Shown: positions 2,308 to 19,231 of the stretch, one piece after another
How positions within the stretch are numbered: the first letter of the stretch is position 1
Layout of the letters: each line of letters opens with the position of its first letter
Source of the DNA: a virus
Length of the DNA stretch: 64,000 nucleotides
IMG/VR virus record: IMGVR_UViG_3300031991_000033
Strand: one strand, 5' to 3'
Notes under the pieces: model-generated
Told to the model about the DNA's origin: nothing
What the model saw: only the letters and a program-made list of their open reading frames with translations
Databases searched by the model: none
Translations under genes and position numbers: made by a program

Positions 2308-2328
2308 AACGACTGAGCCAACTTACAC

Positions 2329-2362: not shown

Positions 2363-2373
2363 GTATAAGTGGA

Positions 2374-2769: not shown

Positions 2770-2881
2770 TTCTGAATCTCCGTAATTTTGGAAGCGACAA
2801 CAGTATTATACAATAAGAAGAACTTAACGCAAGGTGCGTTTTGCCGCCTCACTATATGAGTGAAGTCCACAAGGAGTGTAA

Positions 2882-3370: not shown

Positions 3371-3399
3371 GATATATCGAGAAAATCTGAAAACTCGGT

Positions 3400-3427
3400 T
3401 TTACGTTCCAAATTTTGTTCGTACAAT
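3400..3427 (+). promoter_or_regulatory. Sigma70-like early promoter (weaker copy of a repeated promoter design)
   Basis: TTTACG-N16(ending TTCG)-TACAAT upstream of the AAA gene. Confidence 0.5.
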
Positions 3428-3481
3428 GGGCACACGGCTCAAATCGTGTGTCCATTTTCACTTACAAGCGGAGGTCCGTGC

Positions 3482-4708: not shown

Positions 4709-4718
4709 GGAGAAACCG

Positions 4719-5186
4719 ATGGCTGATTTTGTGTCCTATTGGGCTGTTTTCGCCTCTGGCAATGTTGCCGCACTCTGCCCTCAACGTGAAGACGCATTGG
4801 AATACATGCGTTTGAACGGCGGCGAGGGTATGGAGCAAGTGCGTTCCTTGGAACAGTTGTTCCAAACTTTGCAGCGTCACCGTGCTGCATATCAACAACA
4901 AGTTGCCGAAGACATCCTGCGTGTTCTCGCCGTTGAAGAAGAGATGGGCGAATGCTTTGAAGAAGCATACGACAATCTCATGAACAAACTTGGTGAGCTT
5001 GGACTCACTCGTGAGAATGCTCAGAAGGTTCTCGAAGACCTTCGCAAAGGAACCAGTGACTTCACTAGCGTTCTTGGTGGCTATGGCTGTCAAGCAGTGA
5101 ATGCGGCTGGTGGTTTGCTTGGTCGATTTGCCGCCAAACTACAATCCTTCGGCGTCAATGTCGAGGGGGAAAACGAAGACGAATAA
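4719..5186 (+). CDS. Hypothetical protein
   Basis: AAGGAG RBS; ATG 4719; phage-like codon usage. Confidence 0.7.
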   Translation: MADFVSYWAVFASGNVAALCPQREDALEYMRLNGGEGMEQVRSLEQLFQTLQRHRAAYQQQVAEDILRVLAVEEEMGECFEEAYDNLMNKLGELGLTRENAQKVLEDLRKGTSDFTSVLGGYGCQAVNAAGGLLGRFAAKLQSFGVNVEGENEDE

Positions 5187-5197
5187 GGAGCCTGTGA

Positions 5198-6271
5198 ATG
5201 GCTAGTACGTTGATTGCTGAAGTTTGTAAGATCGCTGAGATCGAGCCGCATCCCGACGCTGATCGTCTTGAATTGGCACGCATCAAAAACTGGTGGTGCA
5301 TTGTCAAGAAAGACGCATTCATCGTTGGCGAAAAGGTTGTATACATCCCACCGGAAACTGTTGTTCCAACAGCGGTTGCCGAGAAATGGGGCGTGTTCAA
5401 CTATTGTTCTCGTCTGCCAAAGTTGGGTGATGGCACTCAACCCGATGGTGTACGAGTCAAAGCGGCTCGGATTCGAGGCGTTGCCAGCCAAGGTTTGATT
5501 CTACCTCCCGAAGACAAAAATTGGGAATTGGGTCATTCGGTGGTTGAACACTTCGGTTTGAGCAAGTACGAGCCACCGCCGCCCGTGAACGCAGGTGAGG
5601 CAATTCCAGAACCGGAGATGTTCCACAGATTCACCGACATCGAAAACATCGGCAACTTTCCTGATGTATTTGTTGATGGCGAGGAAGTTGTTGTCGATGA
5701 AAAGATTCATGGCACCAACGGTCGTGCAGCTATCATCAACATTGACGGCGAAATGAAACTGTTCTGTGGTGGTCACAAACAGTGTCTCAAAGAAGTAAGC
5801 GATGATGGAAAACGATGTGTTTACTGGACTGCTATGGATGACAAGATGCAAGCATTGCTTGCCAAAGTGTCAGAAGGCGGTCGAAACGTTGTCGTGTTCG
5901 TGGAAGTCTTTGGTAGAAAGATTCAAGACATGGAATACGGCATGAACCAAATTGGTTATCGTGCCTACGACATGTCTGTGGATGGTCGTTACTTGGACTA
6001 CGAAGACAAAGTGGCTCTTTTCGCCGAGTTTGGCGTTGAGATGGCACCACTTTTGTATCGTGGACCATTCAGCATGGCGAAGATGCAAGAGTTGGTAGAC
6101 GGTCCTACAACCATGTGCGATCCAGACAAAGCTGGTCGCTTCAGTGGTCGTGAAGGAATCGTCATCCGTCCTGTTAAGGAAGTGCGTCATCCTCATGTTG
6201 GACGGAAAATCCTCAAGATGATTTCGGTTGATTACCACGAACGCAAAGGTAACAAAACCGAATTTCACTAA
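5198..6271 (+). CDS. RNA ligase, DRB0094-type (N-terminal OB/tRNA-binding-like domain plus Rnl2-like nucleotidyltransferase)
   Basis: N-terminal IEPHPDADRLELA...RIRGVASQGL; motif I EKIHGTN; VEVFG; AYDM; REGIVIRP; ILKMISVDY. Confidence 0.9.
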   Translation: MASTLIAEVCKIAEIEPHPDADRLELARIKNWWCIVKKDAFIVGEKVVYIPPETVVPTAVAEKWGVFNYCSRLPKLGDGTQPDGVRVKAARIRGVASQGLILPPEDKNWELGHSVVEHFGLSKYEPPPPVNAGEAIPEPEMFHRFTDIENIGNFPDVFVDGEEVVVDEKIHGTNGRAAIINIDGEMKLFCGGHKQCLKEVSDDGKRCVYWTAMDDKMQALLAKVSEGGRNVVVFVEVFGRKIQDMEYGMNQIGYRAYDMSVDGRYLDYEDKVALFAEFGVEMAPLLYRGPFSMAKMQELVDGPTTMCDPDKAGRFSGREGIVIRPVKEVRHPHVGRKILKMISVDYHERKGNKTEFH

Positions 6272-6280
6272 GAGGTCTCC

Positions 6281-6571
6281 ATGTTCAAGAAAAAAGACTC
6301 ACTGACCGGCATAGGGCTGATTCTGTTCTGTATTGCCTTGGCTGTCGTTATCATCATCGACAGCCAAGGCAAAGAACGGAGAATCCATGCTTGGGCAGAG
6401 CAACAGGGCTACGAGATTGTAGCCATTGAAGAACAACAATTCACAACCGGTCCTTTCCAAAACAAAGACGATACACAGAAGATTTATCGTGCTAGAGTGA
6501 AAGGGAAAGACAACCAAGATAAGTGGATTTGGTTCCGCATTGGTTGGTGGCTCGATGCCAAGGAAGAATGA
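6281..6571 (+). CDS. Small membrane-anchored protein
   Basis: N-terminal hydrophobic helix GIGLILFCIALAVVIII; GAGG RBS. Confidence 0.7.
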   Translation: MFKKKDSLTGIGLILFCIALAVVIIIDSQGKERRIHAWAEQQGYEIVAIEEQQFTTGPFQNKDDTQKIYRARVKGKDNQDKWIWFRIGWWLDAKEE

Positions 6572-7064
6572 GCATGAAAGTTTTGTACTCTAACGAGCCA
6601 GCTATCGGTGATGATTCGCATTCGATCTTTCTTGCTGGACCTACGCCTAGAAGCAGGGATGTTGATTCATGGCGTCCTGAAGCATTGGAATTCCTCGAAG
6701 TTATAGGTTGGAATGGGTTGGTCATGGTGCCTGAACACCGAGACTGGTCTGCCCTTGCAAGTTATGACGGACAGGTTGAGTGGGAGCAGGTTTGCCTCCA
6801 CGGTTGTGGTAAGGTTGTTTTTGGGTTCCTCGTGATCTCAAAACCATGCCAGCCTTCACTACAAATGTTGAATTCGGGTATTGGATCGCACGTGATCCCG
6901 TAAAGGTCATGTATGGGCGACCGGACAACTCGCCCAAGAACCGATATCTGGATTGGATGTATCAGACGCACACTCAACGAGAGCCTGTGTCTGATTTAAG
7001 GACTTTACTTACACAGACTGTTGGGACTTTTAACCATGAATCTGGGACGAGAACATTGGCGTAA
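6568..7064 (+). CDS. Nucleoside 2-deoxyribosyltransferase-like protein, split by a -1 frameshift at a T5 run (6818-6822)
   Basis: IFLAGPTPRS...W in one frame; VVFWVPRDLKTMPAFTTNVEFG...YGRP...RYLDW continues in the -1 frame. One extra T restores the family motif. Confidence 0.75.
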
Positions 7065-7677
7065 ACGTTGGATTACAGCGGATTGGCATTTGGGAGAAGA
7101 TCGCATGGGAATCATGATGCGACCTTTTTCCAATCAACAAGAACACATTAACAACATTGTCATGAGACACAACTTTGCCGTAGCACCTGATGATCTAATC
7201 ATCGTTGTCGGCGATGCTGTGAACCAAAATAAACCTGAGTGTGTCGAGATTCTTGAAAGACTCAACGGACGGAAGGTTTTGATTCGTGGGAATCATGACC
7301 GACCATATTCGGATGAAGAACTCGGAAAATACTTCGAACTCATCATCCCCGAAGGTGAAGGCGTCGAACTTGAAGTGATGTGTGATGGAAGTTTATTGCA
7401 TTGTTGGGCAACACATTATCCAACTCAAGCTCGTGAAGATCGATTCAACTTAGTTGGTCACATCCATTCCGCATGGAAGTTCCAACTGAACAGCGTCAAT
7501 GTTGGTGTGGATTGTAACCATTTCTGTCCACACGATCTTGATGTATTTGTTCCGTTTGCATACACCGCCATCAGTAAGTTCTATGATGACGATGTGTGGG
7601 CGGCTTACCACGAAGCAAATTGCTCCTTCCACGGCAAGCGTGGCAAGGAAGGGGTATATTTCAAAAAGGAAGACTGA
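7036..7677 (+). CDS. Calcineurin-like metallophosphoesterase
   Basis: Motifs ADWHLG, VGD, RGNHD, HYP and GHIH. Confidence 0.9.
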   Translation: MNLGREHWRKRWITADWHLGEDRMGIMMRPFSNQQEHINNIVMRHNFAVAPDDLIIVVGDAVNQNKPECVEILERLNGRKVLIRGNHDRPYSDEELGKYFELIIPEGEGVELEVMCDGSLLHCWATHYPTQAREDRFNLVGHIHSAWKFQLNSVNVGVDCNHFCPHDLDVFVPFAYTAISKFYDDDVWAAYHEANCSFHGKRGKEGVYFKKED

Positions 7678-7678
7678 G

Positions 7679-8512
7679 ATGAGTGATGCACTTGGGGATA
7701 GAATGAAGGCATACGAAGGACAATACGCCGTTCAGGTATTGATGCCTCGTATCCCGGTTGTTGCTCGTATTGACGGTCGAGCGTTCCACAGCTTTTGTCG
7801 TGGACTCAAGCGTCCTTATGATCAACGTCTGTCTGAACTGATGGTTCGCACCACCGAGTATCTCGTTGAAGAGACCGGTGCCAACTGTGGTTATACACAG
7901 AGCGACGAAATCAGTTTAGTGTGGTACAGAGAAGAATACAACTCGGAAATCTTCTTCAAGGGTCGCCTTTTGAAGATGACTTCGATTCTCGCCTCGATGA
8001 CCACCGCATTCTTCAACAAGTACATTCCTGACTACATGCCAGAGAAGGAGGATATTTTCGCCTTCTTTGACTCTCGTGTCTTCAACGTACCCCTCGAACA
8101 GGAAGCAGCAAACTACTTCGTGTGGAGAGAGATGGATGCAACACGCAATAGTGTGAGTATGGCAGCACAGGCTTACTTCTCACACAATTCGTTGCAGGGG
8201 CAGGGTAGTTCGGAAATGCAAGAAAGACTCTTCCAAGAGAAGGGAATTAACTGGAACGACTACCCCGCCTTTTTCAAACGTGGTACTTACGTTCAAAAGC
8301 GTAAGATCAACATCCCATTCACTGCTGCCGAGATTGACAGACTTCCTGAAAAGCACGCTGCAAGAACAAATCCAAATCTTGTAATTGAACGCCAGAAGGT
8401 GTTCAGAATCGACATGCCGCCGATTCTTAGGGTTACAAACAGAGTGGATGTAATTCTGCGTGGTGATGATCCTCAAACCGAAAGCGAAAGCGATGGTCAA
8501 AGTAACGAGTGA
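7679..8512 (+). CDS. tRNA(His) guanylyltransferase Thg1 / Thg1-like 3'-5' polymerase
   Basis: LGDRMKAYE, ARIDGRAFH, YTQSDEISL, FDSRVF, YFVWREMDATRNS, GINWNDYP and FKRG. Confidence 0.92.
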   Translation: MSDALGDRMKAYEGQYAVQVLMPRIPVVARIDGRAFHSFCRGLKRPYDQRLSELMVRTTEYLVEETGANCGYTQSDEISLVWYREEYNSEIFFKGRLLKMTSILASMTTAFFNKYIPDYMPEKEDIFAFFDSRVFNVPLEQEAANYFVWREMDATRNSVSMAAQAYFSHNSLQGQGSSEMQERLFQEKGINWNDYPAFFKRGTYVQKRKINIPFTAAEIDRLPEKHAARTNPNLVIERQKVFRIDMPPILRVTNRVDVILRGDDPQTESESDGQSNE

Positions 8513-8933
8513 AAAATCTGATCCCTTCGAGATTTTTACAACCTCGAAGCTCGAACGCATTATGAATGGTGCGTTGAAGGAGACTATCCGGGCACACGGA
8601 CCTGTAGATGTCAACGGCATCTCTTCTGTGTCAAAACGTGCCTGTATACAACTCCGAGCCTATCTGCGACAGTTCACTTCACAACAATTGTTGGAAGAGT
8701 CAACTAAGCAGATTGTCGAAGCTGCTGAACAATCCAATGTTGATCTACGAGAACACAATCGTAGATTGACAAAACAGGTTGCGTTTCTCGGCGAAGAGTT
8801 ACGCAAGATTCGTGATGGTGAATCCGAGAATCCGTCTGAGACGGCAAAGGAAGCCATCGTTCAAGCAAGGTCGATTCGCAAGGAAGAGAAATGCCAACAG
8901 ATTTCTGGATCGGAATTGTCTTCGGAACTTTAA
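8493..8933 (+). CDS. Hypothetical coiled-coil protein
   Basis: Open frame filling the gap after Thg1; start uncertain. Confidence 0.5.
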   Translation: MVKVTSEKSDPFEIFTTSKLERIMNGALKETIRAHGPVDVNGISSVSKRACIQLRAYLRQFTSQQLLEESTKQIVEAAEQSNVDLREHNRRLTKQVAFLGEELRKIRDGESENPSETAKEAIVQARSIRKEEKCQQISGSELSSEL

Positions 8934-9124
8934 TTGGTATGTTGATCCACATGCTGTGGCTCCGCTCAACGGCAACTGCTGTTGTGGAGAAAATCAATGA
9001 ATGCCAAAATCGTGATGACGAATGGTGGAAGCGTGGCGAACGCCCCCTTGGGAGCGTGAGGACTACGAGCATGATGGGTAATCTTTTGGAAAAATTTGTC
9101 CGACCTTGTTTTACAAAAAACTGA
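8891..9124 (+). CDS. Small membrane protein
   Basis: GGAG RBS; N-terminal TM helix FWIGIVFGTLIGMLIHMLWL. Confidence 0.6.
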   Translation: MPTDFWIGIVFGTLIGMLIHMLWLRSTATAVVEKINECQNRDDEWWKRGERPLGSVRTTSMMGNLLEKFVRPCFTKN

Positions 9125-9137
9125 AACTCCGTAAAAT
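9110..9137 (+). promoter_or_regulatory. Sigma70-like promoter for pncA-vWA
   Basis: TTTACA-N16(ending CCG)-TAAAAT, 52 nt upstream of ATG 9190. Confidence 0.7.
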
Positions 9138-9189
9138 GGTTGCAGTGAGTTAAACTCAGTTTCAAATCCCCGAAGTAGGAGAACTTGTC

Positions 9190-10014
9190 ATGGCGAAGAA
9201 CACCCAACTGATCGTTATCGATCCGCAGAATGATTTCTGCGATCCAAACAAAGGAGCACTTTATGTGAAAGGTGCTCATGATGACATGAACCGGCTCGCC
9301 GGTATGGTCACCCGTCTCGGTTCCAAGATTGACGACATCCACGTCACTTTGGACTCCCACCACAAAATCCACGTTGCTCATCCCATCTACTGGAAGGACA
9401 CGTCGGGCAATCACCCGAACCCCTTCACCATCATCACCGCCCAAGAAGTTCGTGACGGCGTGTGGACGCCTACTCGCCCGGCTTGGTTGCGTCACACTCG
9501 CAAGAGCTTTGGTGCTCTCGATTACGTGGAAGCTCTGGAAGCCAATGGCAAGTACCCGTTGTGTATTTGGCCACCGCACTGCTTGATTGGACATTGGGGT
9601 CACGGTGTCTTCCCGGTTCTGCTCGACGCTCTGGATAAGTGGGAAGAAGACGAATTCGCAGCGGTCAACTTTGTGACCAAGGGTTCGAACTACCACACTG
9701 AACACTACTCCGCTATCTGTGCGGACGTGCCAGACCCGACCGACCACACCACCGACATGAACAAGGGCTTCCTGCAAACCGTGATCGAAGCCGACGAGAT
9801 TCTTCTCGCTGGTGAAGCTGGTTCGCACTGCCTCGCATCGACCGGTCGTGACGCCGACGCCTTCTTCAGCGACGACTCCTTCGTCAAGAAGCTGGTTCTG
9901 CTGACCGACGCCACCAGCCCTGTCCCCGGATTTGAGGGTCTTCAGGACGCCTTTATCCGTGACATGACGGCGAAGGGTATGCGTGTCACCACAACCGTCG
10001 ATTACCTCGCCTAA
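9190..10014 (+). CDS. pncA: Nicotinamidase / isochorismatase-family cysteine hydrolase
   Basis: Catalytic Asp in VIDPQNDFC; metal ligands TLDSH and WPPHC; Lys in TKGS; nucleophile Cys in AGEAGSHCL; adjacent to NAD genes. Confidence 0.85.
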   Translation: MAKNTQLIVIDPQNDFCDPNKGALYVKGAHDDMNRLAGMVTRLGSKIDDIHVTLDSHHKIHVAHPIYWKDTSGNHPNPFTIITAQEVRDGVWTPTRPAWLRHTRKSFGALDYVEALEANGKYPLCIWPPHCLIGHWGHGVFPVLLDALDKWEEDEFAAVNFVTKGSNYHTEHYSAICADVPDPTDHTTDMNKGFLQTVIEADEILLAGEAGSHCLASTGRDADAFFSDDSFVKKLVLLTDATSPVPGFEGLQDAFIRDMTAKGMRVTTTVDYLA

Positions 10015-10073
10015 ACCGTAGTGGTGCAATTTTTGCACCCTGTTCCAACAACCACACCTTTGGGAGAAAAATC

Positions 10074-10829
10074 ATGCCCAAGTTCAATGATGATAATCTT
10101 GAACAGCACAATAACGCTGGAACCGGACACTACGGTTTCTCGGCTGTCAAGATTGAAGACCTCGAAGCCAGTGAATATACACTGGTGACAATCGTGCTCG
10201 ACGAATCCGGTTCCACGTTCGGTTTCAAAAACGAAATGGAAGCTTGCATCAAGGAGATCGTCAAGGCTTGCCGTCAGTCGGCACGTGCCGACTTCCTTCT
10301 GCTCCGTGTTGTGGCATTCGGCACTCGCATGTCGGAAATCCACGGCTTCCTACCGCTGGAACAATGCAATCCCGACAACTACAACGGTTGTTACGGAACC
10401 AACGGCAACGGTGCCAGCACCGCACTTTACGACTCGGCTGAAAACGCCATCAAGTCTTCGACCGTATACGCTGAACAGCTATCCGATCAAGACTTCGACG
10501 TGAACGGTATCGTCTTCATCCTGACGGATGGTGATGACAACGAATCTACGTCGGGCGAAAACGAAGTTCGTGAAGCACTGCAAGCGTGTATCACCAGTGA
10601 GAAGATGGAGTCGCTCGTCTCCGTGCTTGTCGGCGTCAACGTTCAGTCGCCGCATCTCGCTCAGTACCTCGACAACTTCTATCGCAACGCTGGTTTCAGC
10701 CAGTACGTGAAACTGGAAGATGCCGACGCCAACACGCTGGCGAAACTTGCGGACTTCGTGAGCCGAAGCATTTCCAGCCAGAGCCAAGCTCTGGGAACTG
10801 GCGGTCCTTCGCAGTCGCTCACCTTCTAA
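10074..10829 (+). CDS. von Willebrand factor A domain protein (TerY-like)
   Basis: MIDAS elements LDESGS, STALYD and ILTDGDDNES. Confidence 0.9.
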   Translation: MPKFNDDNLEQHNNAGTGHYGFSAVKIEDLEASEYTLVTIVLDESGSTFGFKNEMEACIKEIVKACRQSARADFLLLRVVAFGTRMSEIHGFLPLEQCNPDNYNGCYGTNGNGASTALYDSAENAIKSSTVYAEQLSDQDFDVNGIVFILTDGDDNESTSGENEVREALQACITSEKMESLVSVLVGVNVQSPHLAQYLDNFYRNAGFSQYVKLEDADANTLAKLADFVSRSISSQSQALGTGGPSQSLTF

Positions 10830-10852
10830 TCGGCACCTGTTCTCCTGCCGGG

Positions 10853-10890
10853 AAAGCTGGGTGGAATTTATTCCACCCAGCTTTTTTCTT
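10853..10890 (+). terminator. Intrinsic terminator closing the pncA-vWA unit
   Basis: AAAGCTGGGTGGAA-TTTA-TTCCACCCAGCTTT followed by a T-tract. Confidence 0.9.
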
Positions 10891-10924
10891 ATCACACTCT
10901 CTTATTGCAACAGGAGGACCAATT

Positions 10925-11146
10925 ATGGCTACCAGCTTTAGAAGTAATGGAGTGACTTTCATCTCCAACGAAGACCTTACAGGGGACGTGATGATTCGTC
11001 TGGGAACACCGGACAGCGAGAAACATGACATTCTTCGTGTACCAGCAGAGGCTATTATTGCCTTCGCAGCCGATGTGGTACGCAAGCGAAAAATGAAGAG
11101 GCTAGAGAATATGCCGCCTCTTCAAGTCTTGACCGAATCAGTTTGA
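10925..11146 (+). CDS. Small hypothetical protein
   Basis: AGGAGG RBS; 73 aa. Confidence 0.75.
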   Translation: MATSFRSNGVTFISNEDLTGDVMIRLGTPDSEKHDILRVPAEAIIAFAADVVRKRKMKRLENMPPLQVLTESV

Positions 11147-11167
11147 TTACCAAACTTGTAAAAATGG

Positions 11168-11224
11168 AAAGCCGGGAAATATCCCAGCTTTCTTCTTTGA
11201 CAGATCAATTTTTCTTCGTAAAAT
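11168..11224 (+). promoter_or_regulatory. Hairpin plus sigma70-like promoter cassette driving the pncB-nadE-PP2C-nadD-kinase run
   Basis: AAAGCCGGG..CCCAGCTTT hairpin, then TTGACA(11197)-N16-TAAAAT(11219); a near copy lies at 44280-44335. Confidence 0.75.
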
Positions 11225-11263
11225 CCCATCAGATCGAAGCTTTCTGTATCTTGGAGAACTGTC

Positions 11264-11613
11264 ATGGAACTCACGCCTGCTGAAAAAAAAAGTTGATCGC
11301 CGAACGCCGACAACAAGCTCAAGAAAAGGTGGACAAAGCTCTTGAAAAGGCAAACGAGTTGGAACAATGTTTGTCTTTTCAAGTTCGACAACTTTCCGAA
11401 TACACTGACGCCGAGAAGATTGCGGCTTTTGATAAGCTGTACAAGTTTGCTTCAGGTGTCTATCAAGCACGCCGAAACGAAGAACGGACCAAAGATTCTA
11501 ACCACTACGCTTACGAAGCGGTCATGGAGCTTCTAACGCCCAAAGGCGAAAGAAATCGTGTCTTTTGGGACCATTGGAATGAACTAGGAAACTTACTTCA
11601 GTGCTGGGAATAG
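11264..11613 (+). CDS. Hypothetical protein with a -1 frameshift in an A9 run (11283-11291)
   Basis: GGAG RBS and ATG 11264 give MELTPAEKK; the body LIAERRQQAQEKVD... is in the -1 frame. Confidence 0.65.
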
Positions 11614-11624
11614 AGGAGAACACA

Positions 11625-12800
11625 ATGCCCATTCAATCTGCCTTAGATAACGACCTATACAAGTTCACGATGCAGAACGCTGTACTCAAAAACTTCGCTG
11701 GCGAAGATGTCGAGTACAGGTTCAAAGATCGTCGTCCTTCGGGTCTCTACAACGAAGCATTCCTTGCAGGGTTCAACCAAGAGTTGGATCGAATGTCCAA
11801 GATGCGGTTCAGCAACGAAGAACTCGCTTATGTCCAAAGCGATCTGCCCTTCCTCAACCGACCCGACTACATTGCCTATCTGCATGACTTTCGATTTGAT
11901 CCCAATCAAGTCAAGGCGTCGATTGATGCTGATGGCAACCTTGATATGGGCATCAAAGGCACGTGGGATTCCACGATCCTCTGGGAAGTTCCTCTGCTTG
12001 CAATCGTGAGCGAACAATACTTTTTGCATTGTGACAAGCATTGGACGATGGACGGGCAGTATGAACTTGCTGCCCAGAAGTCTGATCGTCTCACCGCTGC
12101 CGGATGTACTTACGCCGACTTTGCCACACGTCGCCGCCGTAACAGTGCTACGCAGGAGATTTTCATCAAACAAGCGAAGGGCAAAGCCGGGTTCGTCGGA
12201 ACCTCGAATGTTCACTTTGCTCGCCTGTTCAAACTCAAAGCCATTGGAACGATGGCTCATGAATGGATCATGGGTGTCAGCGGCAAAGATGGTTTGCGTC
12301 GTGCAAATCGTGACGCACTCTGGCGTTGGGCAAACACTTACGATGGCAATCTGGGTATTGCTCTCACCGACACCTATGGAACCGCCGCCTTCTTCGAAGA
12401 TTTCGACGGTAAGTTGGCTCGTCTGTACGACGGTGTTCGTCATGACAGTGGAAATCCGTATGATTTCGGTGACAAAGTGATCGAGCATTACAAGAAGCTC
12501 GGAATCAAACCGAACACTCGGACCATTGTTTTCAGCGACGGGTTGGATGTTGACACAGCGATCAAAATCAAGAACTACTTCGCTGGTCGCATCAATGTCA
12601 GCTTTGGTATCGGAACGCACTTCTCGAATGACTTTCCGGCGTGTAAGGGCAGCAAAGCCCTAAGCATTGTCATCAAGTTGTGGAGCATTGCTGGCATTCC
12701 CGTTGTCAAGATCAGTGATGAACCAGCAAAAATTCAAGGCGATGCCGACGCATGTCGGGTAGCCAAGTGGACCTTCTTTGGAACTCCACTAGACGCCTAA
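11625..12800 (+). CDS. pncB: Nicotinate phosphoribosyltransferase
   Basis: DNDLYKFTM, DFATRRR, GTSNV, TMAHEW (phospho-His), LTDTYG, RHDSGNP, VFSDGL, FGIGT, IVIKL and KISDEPAK match the E. coli-type PncB pattern; GAGGAG RBS. Confidence 0.93.
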   Translation: MPIQSALDNDLYKFTMQNAVLKNFAGEDVEYRFKDRRPSGLYNEAFLAGFNQELDRMSKMRFSNEELAYVQSDLPFLNRPDYIAYLHDFRFDPNQVKASIDADGNLDMGIKGTWDSTILWEVPLLAIVSEQYFLHCDKHWTMDGQYELAAQKSDRLTAAGCTYADFATRRRRNSATQEIFIKQAKGKAGFVGTSNVHFARLFKLKAIGTMAHEWIMGVSGKDGLRRANRDALWRWANTYDGNLGIALTDTYGTAAFFEDFDGKLARLYDGVRHDSGNPYDFGDKVIEHYKKLGIKPNTRTIVFSDGLDVDTAIKIKNYFAGRINVSFGIGTHFSNDFPACKGSKALSIVIKLWSIAGIPVVKISDEPAKIQGDADACRVAKWTFFGTPLDA

Positions 12801-12812
12801 CAGGAGAATACC

Positions 12813-14993
12813 ATGAAAGAATACGGTTACTGCCGAGTGACAGCCGTCACTCCAAAAGTTGCAATCGGCAATGTTTCAGCGAATCTCGAAGAACACATTC
12901 GTGCCATCAACGAAGATAACTTCGGACTTACTGACGACGTTGAAGACTATGGTGTAGAAAGCGATGTTATCGTTTTCCCTGAACTCAGTCTTACCGGCTA
13001 TACTTGTGAAGATTTGTTCTTCCAGCGGTCTTTACAAGAACAAGCGTTGGATGCTTTGCGGCGTCTTGCAACTTTGAGTGAAAACTGGCGTTCGACTGTT
13101 ATCGTCGGACTTCCTGTCTTCATGCAAGAAGATGCCACGCTTCGTAACTGTGCGGCTGTGATCGGTAGTGGTCGTGTTCTTGGTATCGTCCCCAAAACGT
13201 TTCTGCCGAACTACCGTGAGTTCTACGAAGCACGTTGGTTCGCCCCAGCAAAGCCAACCGATCCACAGATGGTCAACATTGGCATTCCTGAACGAGTTCC
13301 GTTTGGTGCCGACTTGTTGTTTTCGCCCAAACGCTACGGTAACACAGCATGGACGTTTGGTGTTGAAATCTGCGAAGATGTTTGGTCACCGATTCCACCA
13401 AGCTCTTTTCAAGCACTTGCTGGTGCAACAGTGTTGTTCAATCTTTCGGCGAGCAACGAAACGATTGGCAAATCTGAATACCGTCGCAATTTTGTCAAAG
13501 GTCAAAGCGGTAAGCTGGTATCTGCATACATCTATTGCAGTGCGGGACCAACCGAATCGACCAAAGACCTTGTGTTTGGTGGGCACAACATTATCGGCGA
13601 AGGTGGCAGCATCGTTGCCGAAAGTGAAAAATTCGTGCGGCACACCCACACTTTGACTGCCGACATTGATGTTGACCGCCTATTGAGCGAACGTGCTTCG
13701 ATGCCGGGAACTTTTGCCGAATGTGCTACAAGAAACATGAAGCCGTTTCGGTTTGTTGAGTATCAGACCAATCCGTTGGTCGAGAAAAACCAAGAGTTGT
13801 ATCGACATGTTGAGGCTCACCCCTTTGTGCCAAAGAACCACACCGAATTGAAGGCTCGTTGTGCTGAAATCTTTGGCATCCAGACTGCCGGGCTTGCTAA
13901 ACGATTGGAGCGTGTATCGAAAGACACATACATTGGTGTGTCGGGCGGTCTTGATTCGACTTTAGCTTTGCTTGTCGCCTGTAAGACCTACGATATGCTC
14001 GGTATCGACCGCAAGCATTTGCACGGTATTACGATGCCCGGATTTGGTACGACCAACCGCACCAAGACCAACGCACGGATGTTGATGGATAATCTGGAAA
14101 TTAGCCAGAAGACCATCGACATTCGTGAGATGTGCATCCAAACTTGGCGTGATATGAAACACATTCCGTTCGGCGATGCGGAATGCGTTGTTGGTGGTAG
14201 AACAATGTTGTTTTCGGAGTGTCTACATCAACACACAGTTGTTGAAGGCTACGAAGAACGAAGAAGCATCCTTCCAGAAGAGTTGACTGTCAAACTCTTG
14301 GAAGAGTGTTTGAAATTCTTGCCGGATGGTGCTCAGGATTTGATCTTTGAGAACGTGCAAGCACGTGTACGCACTTTGATTCTCATGAGCCACGGTTTCG
14401 TGTTGGGAACCGGTGATTTGAGCGAGTTGGCTTTAGGTTGGTGTACGTACAACGGCGACCACATGTCGATGTACAACGTCAATTGCAGCATCCCAAAAAC
14501 GCTGGTCAAGTTCTTGGTTGAATACATTGCAGAACACGAAGTCGATAAGACTTGGGTGAACCGCAATGAAACATACCATTGTTTACTTGACATCGTGAAG
14601 ACTCCAATCTCGCCTGAGTTATTGCCAACCAAAGAAGGTGCAATTGCACAGGTCACCGAAGATAATGTGGGACCATACGAGTTGGTTGACTTCTTCTTGT
14701 ACAACTTTATGCGGTGTGGATTTGCACCGGGTAAGATCATGTTCTTGTCGCAGTTCGCAAACTTTGACAAGGACTACGAGTTGAACGAGATCGGCAAGTG
14801 GTTGAAGTTGTTCTACACAAGGTTCTTCACACAGCAGTTCAAACGAGACTGTGTGCCAGACGGACCAAAAGTTGGATCGGTAAGCCTCTCGCCTCGTGGA
14901 GATTGGCGTATGCCACCAGACGCCGACCGTGACGCTTGGTTGCATGAAGTTGATACATGGCTTGAAATTTACGGAGAATTGGAAGATGATTAA
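12813..14993 (+). CDS. nadE: Glutamine-dependent NAD+ synthetase (nitrilase-like glutaminase domain plus synthetase domain)
   Basis: VFPELSLTGY, PKTFLPNYREFYEARWF and EICEDVW (E-K-C triad); GVSGGLDSTLAL; ENVQAR; GTGDLSELALGWCTYNGDH; PKTL; PISPEL; KRDCVPDGPKVG...LSPRGDWRMP. Confidence 0.96.
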   Translation: MKEYGYCRVTAVTPKVAIGNVSANLEEHIRAINEDNFGLTDDVEDYGVESDVIVFPELSLTGYTCEDLFFQRSLQEQALDALRRLATLSENWRSTVIVGLPVFMQEDATLRNCAAVIGSGRVLGIVPKTFLPNYREFYEARWFAPAKPTDPQMVNIGIPERVPFGADLLFSPKRYGNTAWTFGVEICEDVWSPIPPSSFQALAGATVLFNLSASNETIGKSEYRRNFVKGQSGKLVSAYIYCSAGPTESTKDLVFGGHNIIGEGGSIVAESEKFVRHTHTLTADIDVDRLLSERASMPGTFAECATRNMKPFRFVEYQTNPLVEKNQELYRHVEAHPFVPKNHTELKARCAEIFGIQTAGLAKRLERVSKDTYIGVSGGLDSTLALLVACKTYDMLGIDRKHLHGITMPGFGTTNRTKTNARMLMDNLEISQKTIDIREMCIQTWRDMKHIPFGDAECVVGGRTMLFSECLHQHTVVEGYEERRSILPEELTVKLLEECLKFLPDGAQDLIFENVQARVRTLILMSHGFVLGTGDLSELALGWCTYNGDHMSMYNVNCSIPKTLVKFLVEYIAEHEVDKTWVNRNETYHCLLDIVKTPISPELLPTKEGAIAQVTEDNVGPYELVDFFLYNFMRCGFAPGKIMFLSQFANFDKDYELNEIGKWLKLFYTRFFTQQFKRDCVPDGPKVGSVSLSPRGDWRMPPDADRDAWLHEVDTWLEIYGELEDD

Positions 14994-15180
14994 CCTTCCA
15001 ACAACCGCTGACCTTGAGTGTGATGAATGCAACGAAATTATCGAAGTTGACCTCACACTCTTTGCTGGCGATCCAGAAACCGTTGGTTTTGACCATCACG
15101 AAATGCCGGAAGGTTGGGCATTTCGTGATGGCGAACACCTTTGCCCCAACTGCAATAAGGATGAAGACCATGAAGTTTAA
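14986..15180 (+). CDS. Small acidic Zn-ribbon protein
   Basis: CDEC...HLCPNC; overlaps the nadE stop and the PP2C start (translational coupling). Confidence 0.7.
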   Translation: MINLPTTADLECDECNEIIEVDLTLFAGDPETVGFDHHEMPEGWAFRDGEHLCPNCNKDEDHEV

Positions 15181-16006
15181 CGCCGATCATTTTTACTGCA
15201 TTGGGACATCGCATCACTTCTGCGAAGATTTCGCAAACTCTGCGGTTTCCGAACAACAGGATAAGGCGTACAGCATCGTGTCTGACGGATGCTCGTCTGC
15301 CAAAGAATCGAGCATTGGTGCAATGCTTCTGACGAAAAGTGCAGAACAACATTTGTATCCGGTTCGACCAAAAGATCGTGCAGACGAAATGGTAAACCTT
15401 GCTATGCAGGGTGCGAATGTTTTTCGTCGAACGCTCGGTATGAGCGTGGAAGCCTTGCGTGCCACGCTCCTAACTGTTTCCGTTGTCGATGGTGCTTTCC
15501 GAGTTACCACGAACGGCGACGGTGTTGTGGTGGCACGCCATCGCAAAAATGGATTGGAGTACATGGAACTTGAGTTCTCTTCTGGTGCTCCATTCTATCC
15601 GATTTACGATTTGACACACGCTGACCGGGAAAGGTATCTCTCAGAATTCCCCGGCAATTATACGATCCGCCTGCACAGCAATGGGAATGTCGAAGAGGTT
15701 GTTGTGCAGGTGGATCGAGCAAATGGAGCGATCACCTACGCCTACGATTATCCAATTGATCAATACGATCTGGTTGGCGTCATGTCTGATGGAGCACAGA
15801 CCTTTTACAAAGAGAACATGACAGGTACAACCAAAACACCTATCATGGTGCCGGTTGAAGAGGTTGTGAACGAGATGTTCTCGTTCAAAAATCTGCAACC
15901 TAACTTTGTAAAAAGGCGTACCCAGAAGGCGTTCAAAGCCTTTGAAAAATTGGGATACAAACACTTCGATGACTTTAGTATTGGAGTAGTGTGTAGCCAT
16001 GACTAA
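15170..16006 (+). CDS. PP2C-like protein phosphatase (TerY-P triad type)
   Basis: IGTSHHFCEDF, IVSDGCSS, NGDGVV, VMSDG and C-terminal FDDFSI give the PPM metal-binding Asp pattern. Confidence 0.85.
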   Translation: MKFNADHFYCIGTSHHFCEDFANSAVSEQQDKAYSIVSDGCSSAKESSIGAMLLTKSAEQHLYPVRPKDRADEMVNLAMQGANVFRRTLGMSVEALRATLLTVSVVDGAFRVTTNGDGVVVARHRKNGLEYMELEFSSGAPFYPIYDLTHADRERYLSEFPGNYTIRLHSNGNVEEVVVQVDRANGAITYAYDYPIDQYDLVGVMSDGAQTFYKENMTGTTKTPIMVPVEEVVNEMFSFKNLQPNFVKRRTQKAFKAFEKLGYKHFDDFSIGVVCSHD

Positions 16007-16592
16007 ACGACGAATCAACGTGTATGGCAGTGCGTGTAATCCAACACATAACGTGCATCAACTAATCTTGGAAGACCTGTGCCAGATTGGGTTTGATGAA
16101 GTTTGGTTCATGCCCTGTTCTGCCCACGTGTTCGGCAAAGATATGATCGCACCGATTCACCGTCTCAAGATGGCAGAGATTGCTGCCATTGCCGCTGGTG
16201 CTTATGTCTGTGACTACCAAATCAATCTAGGGCGTAAAATCCCCACTTGGGATACATTGCAAGCCTTCCATGCAAGCCAGCCAGATGTGGAGTTTTCTTT
16301 CACGATTGGCGGCGACAACTTAGCCGATTTTGATAAATGGCATCGTTGGGAAGAGCTTGCAGACAAGTATCACGTTGTTGCTTATCGCAGAAATGAAACA
16401 GTTTCAGATTCGATTCTGAGTCGCTTCCGTAATTTGACAATCCGTGAACTTGAACTCAACCCAATTTACGACGGTTTGTCGTCAACGAAAATTCGGGCAT
16501 TGTTGGCGAACAATGACCCCGAAGTGGACCAATACCTGCACCCAGCGGTCTCGCAGTACATTCGAGAGAACAGCCTGTATCGAGGAGAATAG
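15999..16592 (+). CDS. nadD: Nicotinate-nucleotide adenylyltransferase
   Basis: YGSACNPTHNVH (variant of GGSF(D/N)PxHxGH), VWFMP, HRLKM, TWDTL, IGGDNLADFDKWHRWEEL and LSSTKIR. Confidence 0.9.
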   Translation: MTKRRINVYGSACNPTHNVHQLILEDLCQIGFDEVWFMPCSAHVFGKDMIAPIHRLKMAEIAAIAAGAYVCDYQINLGRKIPTWDTLQAFHASQPDVEFSFTIGGDNLADFDKWHRWEELADKYHVVAYRRNETVSDSILSRFRNLTIRELELNPIYDGLSSTKIRALLANNDPEVDQYLHPAVSQYIRENSLYRGE

Positions 16593-16594
16593 TT

Positions 16595-18298
16595 ATGAAA
16601 TACAGCATTCGTGGCACCGGCAATGAAGTTACCCTCACGAATCAGCACTTTCTCGCCAAAGGCGGCGAGGGTTCGATTTTCGCCCGCCCACCGCTGGTTT
16701 ACAAAGTTTGTGAACCGGGCAAGATGATGCCGGATGGCAAAGTACAGGAGCTTGGCGTTCTCGATTCGCCTCGTGTCATTCGACCCAAAGATGTTCTCTT
16801 GGATTCCAAGAAGAAACCGGTTGGATACACGATGGACTATGTGGCAGACACCACCGTTCTCTGCCAACTATTCACCAAGGCGTTTCGTAAGCGAAACGGC
16901 ATCACGCACGATATGATTTGGGAACTTGTGCGTGATATGGAAAAAACAACTCGATTCATCCACAGCAAGGGCGTCTTGGTTGTGGATTACAATGAGTTGA
17001 ATTTTTTGGTGGACAAGAACTTCAAAGAAGTTTACTTCATTGACGTGAACAGCTATCAAACTCCGAGCTATCCCGCTACGGCGATCATGGAAAGCATTCG
17101 AGATCGCCACTGTGGAAATAAGTTCAGTGAACTTACGGATTGGTTCTCTTTTGGGATTGTTTCTTTCCAATTGATGATTGGAATTCACCCATTTAAGGGT
17201 AAGCACCCCAATTTCCTTGATCCGAAAACTTCGATGGATGAACGGATGAAGGCAAACATCTCTGTATTGAATCCTGCCGTGTCTTACCCACAAGGGGCAA
17301 CACAGCCCTTCAGCGTGATTCCTGATGCGTACATGCAGTGGTATAAAGCGATCTTTGATGGTGGCAAACGATTGCCTCCTCCGGGTGTTGGCAGCGGCGT
17401 TATCATCATTGCAACGCCGGTTGTTCAATCGGTGGGTGGTAGCAACTTGTTCACGGTCAACGAACTCTACAACTTTGGTGAAGAAATCATCAGCATCTTC
17501 ATGCATGTTGGGAAAGAGATCGTTGTTACCGACAAGTCTGTCTACGTGGACCGACACAAGATTCCTAACACAACGGCTGATCCAACGATGAAGATCGGAT
17601 TTACACCAACAACGTTGCAGCCAGTTGTGGCGTCAGCCGACATGCGTCAACTGAAGCTCAAGAATCTGACGACCGGTCAGGATTTGAAGTGTTCGTTGTA
17701 CGCTGACGACATCATGTCGCACGATGGTCGTTTGTACGTTCGCAATGGTTCACAAATTTTGGAAATCGAATTCACCGAGATCGGCAAGAATGTGCTCGTC
17801 TCTCCAAAGCATGTTGGCAACGTTTTGGAGCAAGCTGCCAAGGTGTATGATGGTGTGATCGTCGAGAACTTGTTTGATGCGATGTATTTCTCGATGTTCC
17901 CAGAGAGCGGAATCTGCCGTCAGATCGCCATCCGTGAATTGGATGGTTACAAGATCATCGACGCCAAGTATGAAGGCGGATTGTTGGTTGTGATCGGAGT
18001 CAACAACAAGACGGGTGAGTACGACCGATTTACTTTCTGGTTCGATAGCAAGTGGAAGTATCAATCGGTAGTCGTGAAAGACATCACGTACACCGGCTTG
18101 AACTTCACGGTGCTAGATAATGGCGTCGTCATCTTGATCAACGAAGAAGAAAAGGTGGAAATCTTCCGAGTCGCTGATCCAACCAAGAAAAAAGTTGTAG
18201 ACGACGACGCTATTGCGGCTGACATGAAGTTGACGAGTTCTGGTGCTAAAACTATGTTCACAAAAGGACAAAGTTTGTACAGCTTCAAGATGAACTAA
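16595..18298 (+). CDS. Ser/Thr protein kinase-like protein with a long C-terminal domain (TerY-P triad type)
   Basis: Gly loop LAKGGEGSIF, VYKV, catalytic loop HSKGVLVVDYNELNFLV, FIDVNS, TDWFSFGIV and GIHPFKG. Confidence 0.85.
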   Translation: MKYSIRGTGNEVTLTNQHFLAKGGEGSIFARPPLVYKVCEPGKMMPDGKVQELGVLDSPRVIRPKDVLLDSKKKPVGYTMDYVADTTVLCQLFTKAFRKRNGITHDMIWELVRDMEKTTRFIHSKGVLVVDYNELNFLVDKNFKEVYFIDVNSYQTPSYPATAIMESIRDRHCGNKFSELTDWFSFGIVSFQLMIGIHPFKGKHPNFLDPKTSMDERMKANISVLNPAVSYPQGATQPFSVIPDAYMQWYKAIFDGGKRLPPPGVGSGVIIIATPVVQSVGGSNLFTVNELYNFGEEIISIFMHVGKEIVVTDKSVYVDRHKIPNTTADPTMKIGFTPTTLQPVVASADMRQLKLKNLTTGQDLKCSLYADDIMSHDGRLYVRNGSQILEIEFTEIGKNVLVSPKHVGNVLEQAAKVYDGVIVENLFDAMYFSMFPESGICRQIAIRELDGYKIIDAKYEGGLLVVIGVNNKTGEYDRFTFWFDSKWKYQSVVVKDITYTGLNFTVLDNGVVILINEEEKVEIFRVADPTKKKVVDDDAIAADMKLTSSGAKTMFTKGQSLYSFKMN

Positions 18299-18763: not shown

Positions 18764-19231
18764 TCATTCAACGATCAAGTTGGTTGCTGAGAGACCGATG
18801 TCAAGCCATTCCTTGAAGGATGGTTTGATTCTGCGACGTAAAGCACGCAGATATTTGGGCATATCTCTCTTGAGGGCAGGGTGAAGGGGAAACCTAGGGA
18901 GTTCCCCGATCTCAACCCACATCCATGCAGAGTGCTCTTTGGAGAGCTTACGCACCTTAAAATGCGTGTCCACCTTCCATAGTATGCAATGGAACTCGAA
19001 TTGTCCAGTCCTAGAAGTCAGTGTTTCAATTTTTGTGCCGGGCGGTCGATAGACTCCGGTTTCTTCTCGAAGCTCACGCCGAGCCGTCTCTTCTGGACGC
19101 TCACCTTCTTCGCTGTGACCACCGGGTAGACACCATGTTCTCGGATAGGTTTCGGTGTGGTTGCGTTTGAGCAAGAGGATTTTAGAGCCGTCCGAGAAGA
19201 GATAACCGGCTCCTTGTTTTCGCTTGCTCAT
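18764..19231 (-). CDS. Nudix hydrolase
   Basis: Nudix box GGHSEEGERPEETARRELREETG; ILLLKR; EHSAWMW. Confidence 0.93.
   Translation of the reverse strand: MSKRKQGAGYLFSDGSKILLLKRNHTETYPRTWCLPGGHSEEGERPEETARRELREETGVYRPPGTKIETLTSRTGQFEFHCILWKVDTHFKVRKLSKEHSAWMWVEIGELPRFPLHPALKRDMPKYLRALRRRIKPSFKEWLDIGLSATNLIVE

Follow-up and report, generated by a model that had tools for sequence, protein, structure and literature searches.

A predicted deamidating route from nicotinamide to NAD+ in a very large phage, interleaved with genes for vWA, PP2C and kinase proteins

The stretch of viral DNA analysed here (the window; 64,000 nucleotides of the IMG/VR virus record IMGVR_UViG_3300031991_000033) contains a compact module of about 9 kb that, judged by its genes, is a real and complete phage-encoded salvage route of the deamidating (Preiss-Handler) type, predicted to lead from nicotinamide to NAD+. 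The NAD enzyme genes are interleaved with genes for a vWA-domain protein, a PP2C-type phosphatase and a Ser/Thr-kinase-like protein, and the module is probably regulated. From our point of view, the best explanation overall, which we consider moderately probable, is that the phage runs deamidating salvage under the control of this trio and in this way upholds NAD+ against depletion. The genes are arranged in two units, of which the first would give rise to a long-form nicotinamidase together with its vWA partner, and the second to PncB, glutamine-dependent NadE, the PP2C phosphatase, NadD and the kinase. The features of the region are, by position in the window:

9110..9137, + strand: promoter P1, sigma-70-like (TTTACA-16-TAAAAT, CCG before the -10 box)
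9190..10014, + strand: long-form nicotinamidase, PncA-like, 274 aa; predicted step 1, nicotinamide to nicotinate
10074..10829, + strand: vWA-domain protein, TerY-like, with a MIDAS-type motif (DESGS...T...D), from atlas and structure matches
10850..10886, + strand: intrinsic-terminator-like hairpin with a U run behind it, closing unit 1 (PncA-like and vWA)
10925..11146, + strand: 73-aa ORF
11166-11193: weaker hairpin after the 73-aa ORF (-15 kcal/mol, z -3.1)
11197..11224, + strand: promoter P2, sigma-70-like (TTGACA-16-TAAAAT, TCG before the -10 box)
11264..11613, + strand: small ORF(s) in the leader of unit 2, as read from the sequence
11625..12800, + strand: PncB, nicotinate phosphoribosyltransferase; predicted step 2, nicotinate and PRPP to NaMN
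12813..14993, + strand: glutamine-dependent NAD+ synthetase, NadE long form; predicted step 4, NaAD to NAD+
14986..15180, + strand: mini-ORF of 64 aa (CxxC...CxxC), which overlaps both the stop of NadE and the start of PP2C
~15170..16006, + strand: PP2C-type protein phosphatase (Pfam PP2C_2, 42.6 bits, cut-off 24)
15999..16592, + strand: NadD, nicotinate-mononucleotide adenylyltransferase; predicted step 3, NaMN to NaAD
16595..18298, + strand: Ser/Thr-kinase-like protein, 567 aa (Pfam Pkinase, 27.5 bits, under the cut-off of 31.7)
18764..19231, - strand: Nudix hydrolase, MutT/NudG-like (Pfam NUDIX, 71.8 bits)

All four enzyme genes lie on the + strand at the coordinates that an earlier note on this DNA had given, and the enzymology as assigned is very likely correct. 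The nicotinamidase belongs to a long (~267-274 aa) and divergent subfamily that carries some 60 inserted residues, and it stays below the cut-offs of both Pfam Isochorismatase PF00857 (19.9 bits, cut-off 27) and NF008623 (22.6 bits, cut-off 174). Aligned to yeast Pnc1, its residues D11, K164 and C214 fall on D8, K122 and C167, which we take to be the catalytic triad, while D55, H57 and H130 fall on D51, H53 and H94, presumably the metal ligands. Across 41 homologues, no variation was seen at D11, D55, H57, H130 or K164, while C214 is conserved in at least 90%. The structure model (pLDDT 95) has nicotinamidases as all of its 11 best PDB fold matches, and its matches include 2wta, 3v8e, 2h0r, 3r2j, 9u8m, 1ilw and 3pl1 (TM by target ~0.8). 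The aligned triad and metal site, together with these fold matches, hence bear out the claim of a nicotinamidase with intact catalytic motifs at 9190.

PncB is the sole NAPRTase-family gene on the 158-kb contig and carries the Pfam domains NAPRTase and NAPRTase_N; its start was read by eye as the ATG at 11625, with an in-frame GTG alternative at 11601. As the protein exceeds two curated cut-offs (TIGR01514, 403.2 bits against 269.55; NF003704, 436.3 bits against 379) and reaches only 63 bits with the PHROG called 'nicotinamide PRTase', the choice between PncB and Nampt, which the earlier note had wanted checked, falls on PncB. The glutamine-dependent NadE assigned to 12813 is likewise upheld: it scores 795 bits against NF002730 (cut-off 473), has both the glutaminase (CN-hydrolase) and the NAD-synthase Pfam domains, and aligns to the glutamine-dependent NadE of M. 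tuberculosis (3dla; E 4e-124). The stretches that in 3dla, as we assume, hold the glutaminase Glu, Lys and Cys, and the SGGLDS loop (SGGxDS, which we take to be the ATP loop), are aligned and conserved. For NadD, the family assignment stood on structure matches and motifs, whereas the profile fell slightly short: NadD enzymes make up the whole of the 17 best PDB matches (18 of 19 overall), and the motifs PTHNVH (HxxH) and SSTKIR (SSTxIR) align to B. subtilis NadD 1kam, but TIGR00482 gives 105.6 bits against a cut-off of 112.45. Besides NadD, CoaD is the one HIGH-type nucleotidyltransferase that the contig encodes.

On paper, the pathway is thus complete as had been proposed, with all four steps apparently encoded. 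Nicotinamide released by NADase-type defences or by other NAD-consuming enzymes would be deamidated to nicotinate by the nicotinamidase, PncB would combine nicotinate with host PRPP to NaMN, NadD would adenylylate NaMN to NaAD, and NadE would amidate NaAD to NAD+, so that the NAD+ pool of the infected cell could be sustained. PRPP, ATP and glutamine would be supplied by the host, and ADP-ribose is not reused.

The module sits in phage DNA, as the earlier note had also held, since structural hallmark genes flank it on both sides. Terminase (TerL), portal and capsid/major head protein genes (positions 1-13,500 of the contig) and a topoisomerase II gene lie upstream; a head-tail adaptor and a sheath gene follow right after the module, and baseplate, RNR and SbcC genes come thereafter. 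According to CheckV, the contig is about 31% complete, from which it follows that the phage is very large. The record is tagged 'provirus' in IMG/VR, the four enzymes all belong to typical bacterial housekeeping families, and bacterial MAGs carry close homologues of the nicotinamidase, all of which would fit a bacterial pathway that lies in host DNA, in the flank of a prophage or in a chimeric assembly. This is, however, highly improbable in view of the hallmark phage genes on either side (TerL, portal and capsid; head-tail adaptor and sheath), the even GC content over the whole window, and the occurrence of the module in a relative (L003), where a T4 gp13-like gene adjoins it, and inside many further IMG/VR contigs of 60-480 kb. 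The RNA ligase, Thg1 and phosphoesterase genes that neighbour the module are counter-defence-like in appearance.

The full order of seven genes recurs in L003 at 64-89% amino-acid identity and, at 29-53%, in the IMG/VR contigs L005/L006 and L008; it was found again in L107, L108 and L177 (the last being the contig of L008), and in L157 the cassette of nicotinamidase, vWA, PP2C and kinase is followed by PncB-NadE-NadD without interleaving. In at least four diverged phage lineages, the enzymes are physically interleaved with the triad. The module is mostly confined to very large, uncultured phages.

The two units, which the earlier note had put behind promoters of the same design, are supported by the sequence of the region. 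Between positions 6000 and 19500, P2 is the best sigma-70-like match (11/12) and P1 the second best, and their design class with (C/T)CG before the -10 box comprises only five sites in the 158-kb contig. As both units start at host-type, sigma-70-like promoters, early expression is suggested; a search of RNA runs returned no run containing module sequence. The hairpin that closes unit 1 has a folding energy of -25.9 kcal/mol (z -6.2), and none of 200 shuffles folds as well. L003 keeps the layout of promoter, PncA, vWA, hairpin, promoter and PncB, with the equivalent hairpin in its vWA-PncB spacer. Within unit 2 the genes are tightly spaced, with a gap of 12 nt between PncB and NadE, an overlap of 8 nt between PP2C and NadD, and a gap of 2 nt between NadD and the kinase. 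As regards the small ORFs, tblastn found no relatives of the 73-aa ORF in the loci L001-L022, L003 included, the leader ORF(s) have none in L001-L022 either, and the 64-aa CxxC mini-ORF is peculiar to this lineage, as none of the fetched loci has a relative of it. The leader ORF with its ATG at 11264 has a good RBS and stops past an A9 run (11283-11291), after which a 106-aa frame follows (11293-11613); the leader region gave a weak, sub-threshold Mu Gam match only.

The idea of a plain four-gene system, as put forward in the earlier note, holds for the enzymes themselves, but not for their setting, since the vWA, PP2C and kinase genes, of which that note makes no mention, lie between and beside them and the nicotinamidase heads a conserved cassette of its own (PncA-like, vWA, PP2C, kinase). 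The vWA protein was assigned from an atlas feature and from the vWA families that it matches in structure, with the MIDAS motif read by eye. The PP2C gene probably starts at the ATG 15170 or 15161, judging by the sequence and a 270-aa homologue in L003, and its frame is open from 15014. The atlas clusters of the kinase are kinase families, viral for the most part, and for its C-terminal 308 residues there is no Pfam match and no CxxC pair was seen in the translation. Among 63 viral loci, most contain the cassette, and the vWA gene directly follows the PncA-like gene in nearly all of them, as it does in 41 of 51 informative bacterial loci; the cassette was found in 38 of these 51, where vWA and kinase come after the nicotinamidase. 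The order of PP2C and kinase is kept on both sides. PncB adjoins the cassette in many viral loci and in 13 of the 51 bacterial ones. Neither NadE nor NadD was found near any of the 51, and in 29 of the 63 viral loci the 10 kb around the cassette are free of further NAD genes, so that the cassette can do without a pathway encoded alongside it. All four NAD enzymes came together in only 4 of the 63 viral loci.

In domain composition, the trio equals the TerY-P triad of vWA, PP2C and Ser/Thr kinase (Anantharaman, Iyer and Aravind 2012, in the summary given by PMC11090510), whose core, a MIDAS-type vWA protein encoded together with a PP2C and a Ser/Thr kinase, is present here. The C-terminus of the TerY-P kinase is a zinc ribbon in the classical and an OB fold in the defence type, whereas the kinase of the module has there a half of about 300 aa lacking a Pfam match. 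A further difference is that the triad comes here with a nicotinamidase and with genes of NAD salvage, an association that we found in no paper in the searchable literature.

Could the cassette then be an autonomous signalling or conflict unit, for which the interleaving with PncB, NadE and NadD is secondary? Such a unit might remove nicotinamide in order to tune NAD-consuming enzymes, or might starve a rival's nicotinamide-dependent salvage. It would fit the cassette-only viral loci and the bacterial counts given above, the separate promoter and strong terminator of the PncA-like and vWA genes, the interleaving of viral and bacterial sequences in the tree, and a bacterial homologue that lies in a mobile island adjoining a TIR-domain gene; TerY-P-like triads are, moreover, described as stand-alone anti-phage systems (Gao 2020, in the summary of PMC11090510). 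We nevertheless consider it clearly unlikely, because PncB is the adjacent gene in 13 of the 51 bacterial loci and in many viral ones, and because four or more phage lineages, though diverged, have kept the interleaving, which speaks for a joint use. In addition, the PADLOC models, which we assume to include TerY-P, gave no match for vWA or PP2C and a weak mad6 match only for the kinase.

For the preferred reading, trio control of a salvage route, it is relevant that the trio travels with the nicotinamidase family, so that a phosphorylation switch on the first step is its most likely role.

NADase defences and phage-encoded rebuilding of NAD+ are both established (10.1101/2024.02.11.579819; PMC13464706). 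Depletion of NAD+ is among the main defences of bacteria against phages, and for three rebuilding routes, NARP1, NARP2 and NARP3, there is experimental proof. The module, too, is phage-encoded and would provide a complete route from a NADase product to NAD+, but no homology to the enzymes of NARP1, NARP2 or NARP3 was found among PRPP-synthetase-like, NAPRTase-family, PnuC and HIGH-type nucleotidyltransferase genes. It is similar in its substrates to NARP2 (Nampt and Nmnat; 10.1101/2024.02.11.579819), which likewise makes NAD+ from nicotinamide, PRPP and ATP and leaves ADP-ribose unused. NARP2 does so with two enzymes and no deamidation, whereas the module would use four, via nicotinate, NaMN and NaAD, at a higher cost in ATP and with a PncB equivalog in place of Nampt; the counter-defence function of NARP2 has been shown experimentally, and the module is known from its genes alone. 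NARP1 and NARP3 are phage operons that restore NAD+ after defence-driven depletion, as is proposed for the module, and differ in their substrates, which are ADPR for NARP1 and nicotinamide riboside for NARP3, as against nicotinamide here. The fragment contains neither a PRPP-synthetase-like Adps, as in NARP1, nor a full PnuC, as in NARP3 (only an 80-aa sub-threshold match, 21.5 bits). The designation as a third architecture has been overtaken, as NARP3 is already taken by PnuC and NadR (PMC13464706).

Novelty in the wider sense, as claimed earlier, does not hold either, given the four-gene set of the Sinorhizobium phage Phosso and the Preiss-Handler clusters of jumbo phages described in the main text of Li et al. 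2024, Microbiome (PMC11662467). There, jumbo phages with the whole Preiss-Handler route are described, with clustered pncB-nadD-nadE (e.g. in Kuafu_71) and a mention of phage pncA; on that count our finding is incremental. These clusters are similar to the module in that huge phages encode PncB, NadD and NadE for a complete route from nicotinate to NAD+, and in being known from sequence only. What the module adds is the nicotinamidase, by which the entry compound becomes nicotinamide, and the interleaved vWA/PP2C/kinase trio, of which we found no description in the main text of Li et al. 2024 (PMC11662467). Phosso (PV764938; cultured, 469 kb) has NadE(NH3), PncB, Nudix, NMNAT (NMN/NaMN adenylyltransferase) and PncA-like (isochorismatase) genes side by side within 6 kb and shares the four-step logic, but its NadE is of the NH3-dependent type, its PncA is short and canonical (215 aa; best PDB match 1ilw), a Nudix gene is part of the cluster, and no vWA, PP2C or kinase is annotated in it. 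Since its PncB is only 34% identical to the one described here, its NadE is of another type and NadD of the module had no tblastn match in Phosso, the set of that phage seems to have been assembled independently.

What the phage would gain from the module is less certain than its enzymology. The selective pressure is most likely exerted by NAD+-depleting abortive-infection systems, and a counter-defence benefit is in our estimation conceivable, if slightly less probable than its absence. Since the predicted route needs only the nicotinamide half and PRPP, as NARP2 does, it would be independent of the fate of the ADP-ribose half. NARP1 (Adps and Namat) is defeated by aRES through a change to the ADPR half (10.64898/2026.01.28.702374), and such a change would go unnoticed by a nicotinamide-only route. 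The proposal of the earlier note that deamidated intermediates may escape NADases leaves the end product unprotected, as this is still NAD+ and can be cleaved by NADases. Nicotinamide inhibits sirtuin-type enzymes, and its removal could therefore speed up some NADases instead of slowing them.

A different benefit would be that of a general metabolic booster, i.e. a larger NAD+ pool for redox reactions and NAD-consuming enzymes during the long cycle of the phage, with no specific link to NADase defences. Li et al. 2024 understand their clusters as a supply of NAD and report many NAD-consuming enzymes in NAD-jumbo phages (PMC11662467). The contig is rich in further genes of metabolism (RNR, CoaD, a tRNA-synthetase-like gene, radical SAM, carbamoyltransferase), and the bacterial cassette adjoins an ordinary PncB. 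Yet the predicted entry compound is nicotinamide, a NADase product and not an external vitamin, the neighbouring RNA ligase, Thg1 and phosphoesterase genes resemble counter-defence genes, and the 158-kb fragment, which is about a third of a genome of which some two thirds are missing, contains no NAD-dependent ligase, Sir2 or macro domain. We therefore regard the booster as somewhat unlikely.

The most far-reaching version of the preferred reading is that all seven genes belong to a single system for NAD+ reconstitution under phospho-regulation, in which kinase, PP2C and vWA proteins would sense NAD+ collapse or the activation of a defence and switch on the dedicated nicotinamidase. Nicotinamide would then be driven through the phage's own deamidating route, allowing huge phages to survive NADase defences, including those that, like aRES, spoil the ADP-ribose half; this we hold to be doubtful. 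If it were true, the cassette in bacteria would add to NAD salvage a level of signalling not described so far, and both sides of the conflict would be using it. Should the module rescue infection, it would represent the first deamidating route and the first apparently under kinase/phosphatase control. The fixed pairing of the nicotinamidase family with vWA, PP2C and kinase in hundreds of loci of bacteria and viruses in any case points to a level of control over NAD salvage that has gone unstudied.

Beyond the module, the Nudix gene at 18764..19231 is convergent with the end of the module, and its best NCBIfam matches are nucleoside-triphosphatase types, every one of them below its cut-off.

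The nicotinamidase, vWA, PncB, NadE, PP2C, NadD and kinase genes form a densely packed set on the + strand between 9110 and 18298.

Genes of the module, followed by two further genes that bear on its interpretation
9190-10014, + strand: PncA-like putative nicotinamidase, 274 aa; assigned by Pnc1 alignment, homologue conservation and predicted fold
between the nicotinamidase and PncB genes, + strand: vWA protein, 251 aa, with a MIDAS-type motif; omitted by the earlier note
11625 (ATG, read by eye)-12800, + strand: PncB; TIGR01514, 403 bits against a cut-off of 269.55
12813-14993, + strand: two-domain, glutamine-dependent NadE; NF002730, 795 bits against 473
frame open from 15014, start probably 15170, + strand: PP2C phosphatase; PP2C_2, 42.6 bits against 24
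15999-16592, + strand: NadD; TIGR00482, 105.6 bits, slightly below the cut-off of 112.45
16595-18298, + strand: kinase-like protein; Pkinase, 27.5 bits against 31.7
18764-19231, - strand: MutT/NudG-like Nudix hydrolase, convergent with the module end
L194:1378-1962 (same contig, 43418-44002, outside the window), - strand: CoaD, the pantetheine-phosphate adenylyltransferase of CoA biosynthesis; TIGR01510, 159 bits against 103

When the four NAD enzymes were compared with curated models, as the earlier note had proposed, PncB and NadE exceeded their cut-offs, whereas NadD fell slightly short and the nicotinamidase missed its thresholds (Isochorismatase, 19.9 against 27; NF008623, 22.6 against 174). 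Despite these missed cut-offs, three independent lines support the assignment of the 9190-10014 product as a nicotinamidase. Firstly, in an alignment with yeast Pnc1, D11, K164 and C214 occupy the positions of the catalytic triad, D55, H57 and H130 those of the metal ligands, and the residues of the aromatic pocket are retained as F16, W127 and Y173. Secondly, across 41 homologues none of the triad and metal residues varies apart from C214, whose conservation is at least 90%. Thirdly, the 11 best PDB matches of an AlphaFold model (mean pLDDT 95) are all nicotinamidases. The protein is one of a large subfamily of long forms, about 267 aa in length, with 6444 matches, the best 120 of which share at least 58% identity. 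For NadE, the M. tuberculosis enzyme (3dla) aligns with an E value of 4e-124, with the glutaminase and ATP-loop stretches conserved, and NadD carries the HxxH and SSTxIR motifs, its best 17 solved relatives, and 18 of 19 overall, being NadD enzymes. The alignment, conservation and model of the nicotinamidase, together with the motif alignments of NadE and NadD, therefore bear out the claim of four genes with intact motifs. A second HIGH-type nucleotidyltransferase on the contig was considered as an NMNAT and rejected, as it is CoaD.

Among the sigma-70-like matches between 6000 and 19500, whose total (16, against 12.7 expected) is no more than chance would give, the top two are located at 9110 and 11197, the sites to which two promoter-led units had been ascribed. 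The pattern TT(G/T)ACA-16 nt-TAAAAT, however, occurs at only five sites in the entire 158-kb contig, each of them with (C/T)CG directly before the -10 box. Downstream of the vWA gene comes a strong hairpin, trailed by a U run, with a folding energy of -25.9 kcal/mol (z -6.2), and the layout of promoter, PncA-like gene, vWA gene, hairpin, promoter and PncB is kept in the related locus L003, even though its proteins are only 64-89% identical. The two promoter-like sites, the hairpin and the retained layout agree with the proposed division and point to a first unit of nicotinamidase and vWA and a second of PncB, NadE, PP2C, NadD and kinase. The spacer of about 770 bp between them holds small ORFs without relatives in the fetched loci L001-L022. 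One of these begins with the ATG at 11264, behind a good RBS, reads into an A9 homopolymer (11283-11291) and then stops; with one extra A it would be fused to a 106-aa frame from 11293 (together 11264-11613), and the split could be due to an error in sequencing or to slippage during transcription, or the two ORFs could simply be separate. A further 73-aa ORF (10925-11146) with its own weaker hairpin (11166-11193) is missing from L003, where the vWA-PncB spacer measures only about 120 bp.

The IMG/VR virus contig (157,792 bp, labelled "provirus", CheckV completeness 31%) starts with terminase, portal, T4-type major head protein and topoisomerase II genes. Upstream of the module lie an RNA ligase, a phosphoesterase and a Thg1 homologue, and downstream a head-tail adaptor, sheath stabiliser, sheath, baseplate hub, RNR and SbcC-like protein. 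Since phage genes are found at both flanks and the GC content is even throughout the window, an origin from a host chromosome or a chimera is very unlikely and was rejected, in line with the phage context claimed previously. The sequence is present in biofilm and cave metagenomes; no RNA runs with the window sequence were found, and a DNA-level search of a phage collection returned nothing beyond short 67-77% matches to uncultured huge phages. The block of RNA ligase, metallophosphoesterase and Thg1-like genes (5198-8512) is syntenic in L003 and in two further loci, L007 and L020, and Agrobacterium phage Atu_ph07 likewise has Thg1 and RNA ligase near PncB.

The seven-gene order recurs in L003 (64-89% identity), in the IMG/VR contigs L005/L006 and L008 (29-53% identity) and likewise in the viral loci L107, L108 and L177, the last being on the L008 contig; L007 and L020 hold PncB, NadE and NadD only. 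A scan with one genome per prokaryotic species gave 569 nicotinamidase relatives. In the 51 prokaryotic loci whose downstream sequence extends for at least 4.5 kb, a vWA gene directly follows the nicotinamidase in 41 and is joined by a kinase in 38, PncB is nearby in 13, and NadE or NadD in none. IMG/VR yielded 172 relatives, and among the 63 loci with flanks of at least 8 kb on each side, the bare cassette of PncA, vWA, PP2C and kinase was found in 29 and all four NAD enzymes, the co-occurrence that the earlier note proposed to look for, in four; these counts are based on tblastn, by which NadD and NH3-type NadE are undercounted. Three of the four are interleaved as in the window, and the fourth (L157) has the cassette followed by PncB-NadE-NadD. 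In a maximum-likelihood tree, the window and L003 fall into a clade with good support whose 11 rows are the window itself, 7 viral ones and 3 labelled bacterial, and viral and bacterial labels are interleaved, with at least four changes forced by supported branches. From the locus counts and the tree, the nicotinamidase heads a mobile four-gene cassette common to bacteria and huge phages, and the complete pathway arises where this cassette is joined to PncB-NadE-NadD. A 73%-identical nicotinamidase homologue without the trio is found on a 6.8-Mb bacterial chromosome (L004:2180-3127 and 10001-10852), where it shares a mobile island with a TIR-domain gene, helicases, ArdC and an integrase, and a different bacterial contig carries the cassette close to a WGR-PARP gene (L023:15397-16668).

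The vWA, PP2C and kinase genes form a TerY-P-like trio interleaved with the NAD enzyme genes. Judged by gene association alone, the trio would most simply be read as a phospho-switch on the nicotinamidase, a link not found among searchable papers. A complex prediction for nicotinamidase and vWA scored 0.00, which is evidence neither way, and PADLOC defence models gave no match to the trio, the nicotinamidase or their neighbours save a weak mad6 hit for the kinase. Classical TerY-P kinases typically carry a fused zinc ribbon, and it is thus curious that a free 64-aa CxxC...CxxC mini-ORF (14986-15180) lies here, overlapping the stop of NadE and the start of PP2C; none of the fetched loci, L003 included, has a relative of it. 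The usual partners of MoxR-type ATPases are vWA proteins, and a 420-aa protein with an AAA_5 (MoxR/dynein-type) ATPase domain (3446-4708), with a counterpart in L003, may by analogy be a partner of the vWA gene 5 kb downstream.

Very probably, the module would convert nicotinamide via nicotinate, NaMN and NaAD to NAD+, with PRPP, ATP and glutamine drawn from the host, and the benefit to the phage is probably that the NAD+ pool is upheld in the infected cell. A feeder step from ADPR to PRPP was dropped because the adjacent Nudix protein looks MutT/NudG-like, with no recognised ADP-ribose pyrophosphatase signature. A PnuC match proved to be an 80-aa sub-threshold membrane ORF rather than a gene for a transporter and was rejected, and no NAD-dependent ligase, macro domain, Sir2 or PRPP-synthetase-like genes were found on the 158-kb fragment.

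Phage NAD+ salvage clusters are already known. NARP1 (Adps+Namat) and NARP2 (Nampt+Nmnat) were described in a study that makes no mention of pncA, pncB, nadD or nadE (10.1101/2024.02.11.579819), and Aravind-group surveys list only NadV with NadM/NadR. While the four genes, two units and phage context of the earlier note stand, its "third architecture" does not, since that place is taken by NARP3, PnuC+NadR (PMC13464706). What is new here is a variant that is deamidating, uses nicotinamide as entry and is linked to a kinase trio. NARP1 relies on the ADP-ribose half, which the defence aRES alters (10.64898/2026.01.28.702374), whereas the route encoded here, like NARP2, is independent of that half, a real advantage over NARP1. 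Deamidated intermediates may escape NADases, as the earlier note proposes, but would still leave the final NAD+ unprotected, and a specific counter-NADase role is a tentative reading to which we give slightly less than even weight. General NAD supply, which is compatible with a counter-NADase role rather than exclusive of it, seems somewhat less likely still to us. Li et al. 2024 (PMC11662467), working from sequence only, present NAD supply as the role; they find a complete salvage or Preiss-Handler pathway in 174 jumbo phages, give one example with a pncB-nadD-nadE cluster and mention phage pncA. In the cultured phage Phosso, NadE(NH3), PncB, a Nudix protein, an NMNAT-type transferase and a short PncA-like protein adjoin one another, as if these four steps had been put together there independently.

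At the position equivalent to the Nudix gene, L003 carries a 154-aa gene. Near the contig end, outside the window, a class-I (Met-type) tRNA-synthetase-like gene (L191:15498-16793) and a radical-SAM gene (L191:4050-5510) fit a very large phage, and two neighbouring ORFs that overlap in part and are read in different frames (L195:1730-2219, contig ~156059-156548) resemble by eye a frameshift-split ribosome-recycling-factor gene.
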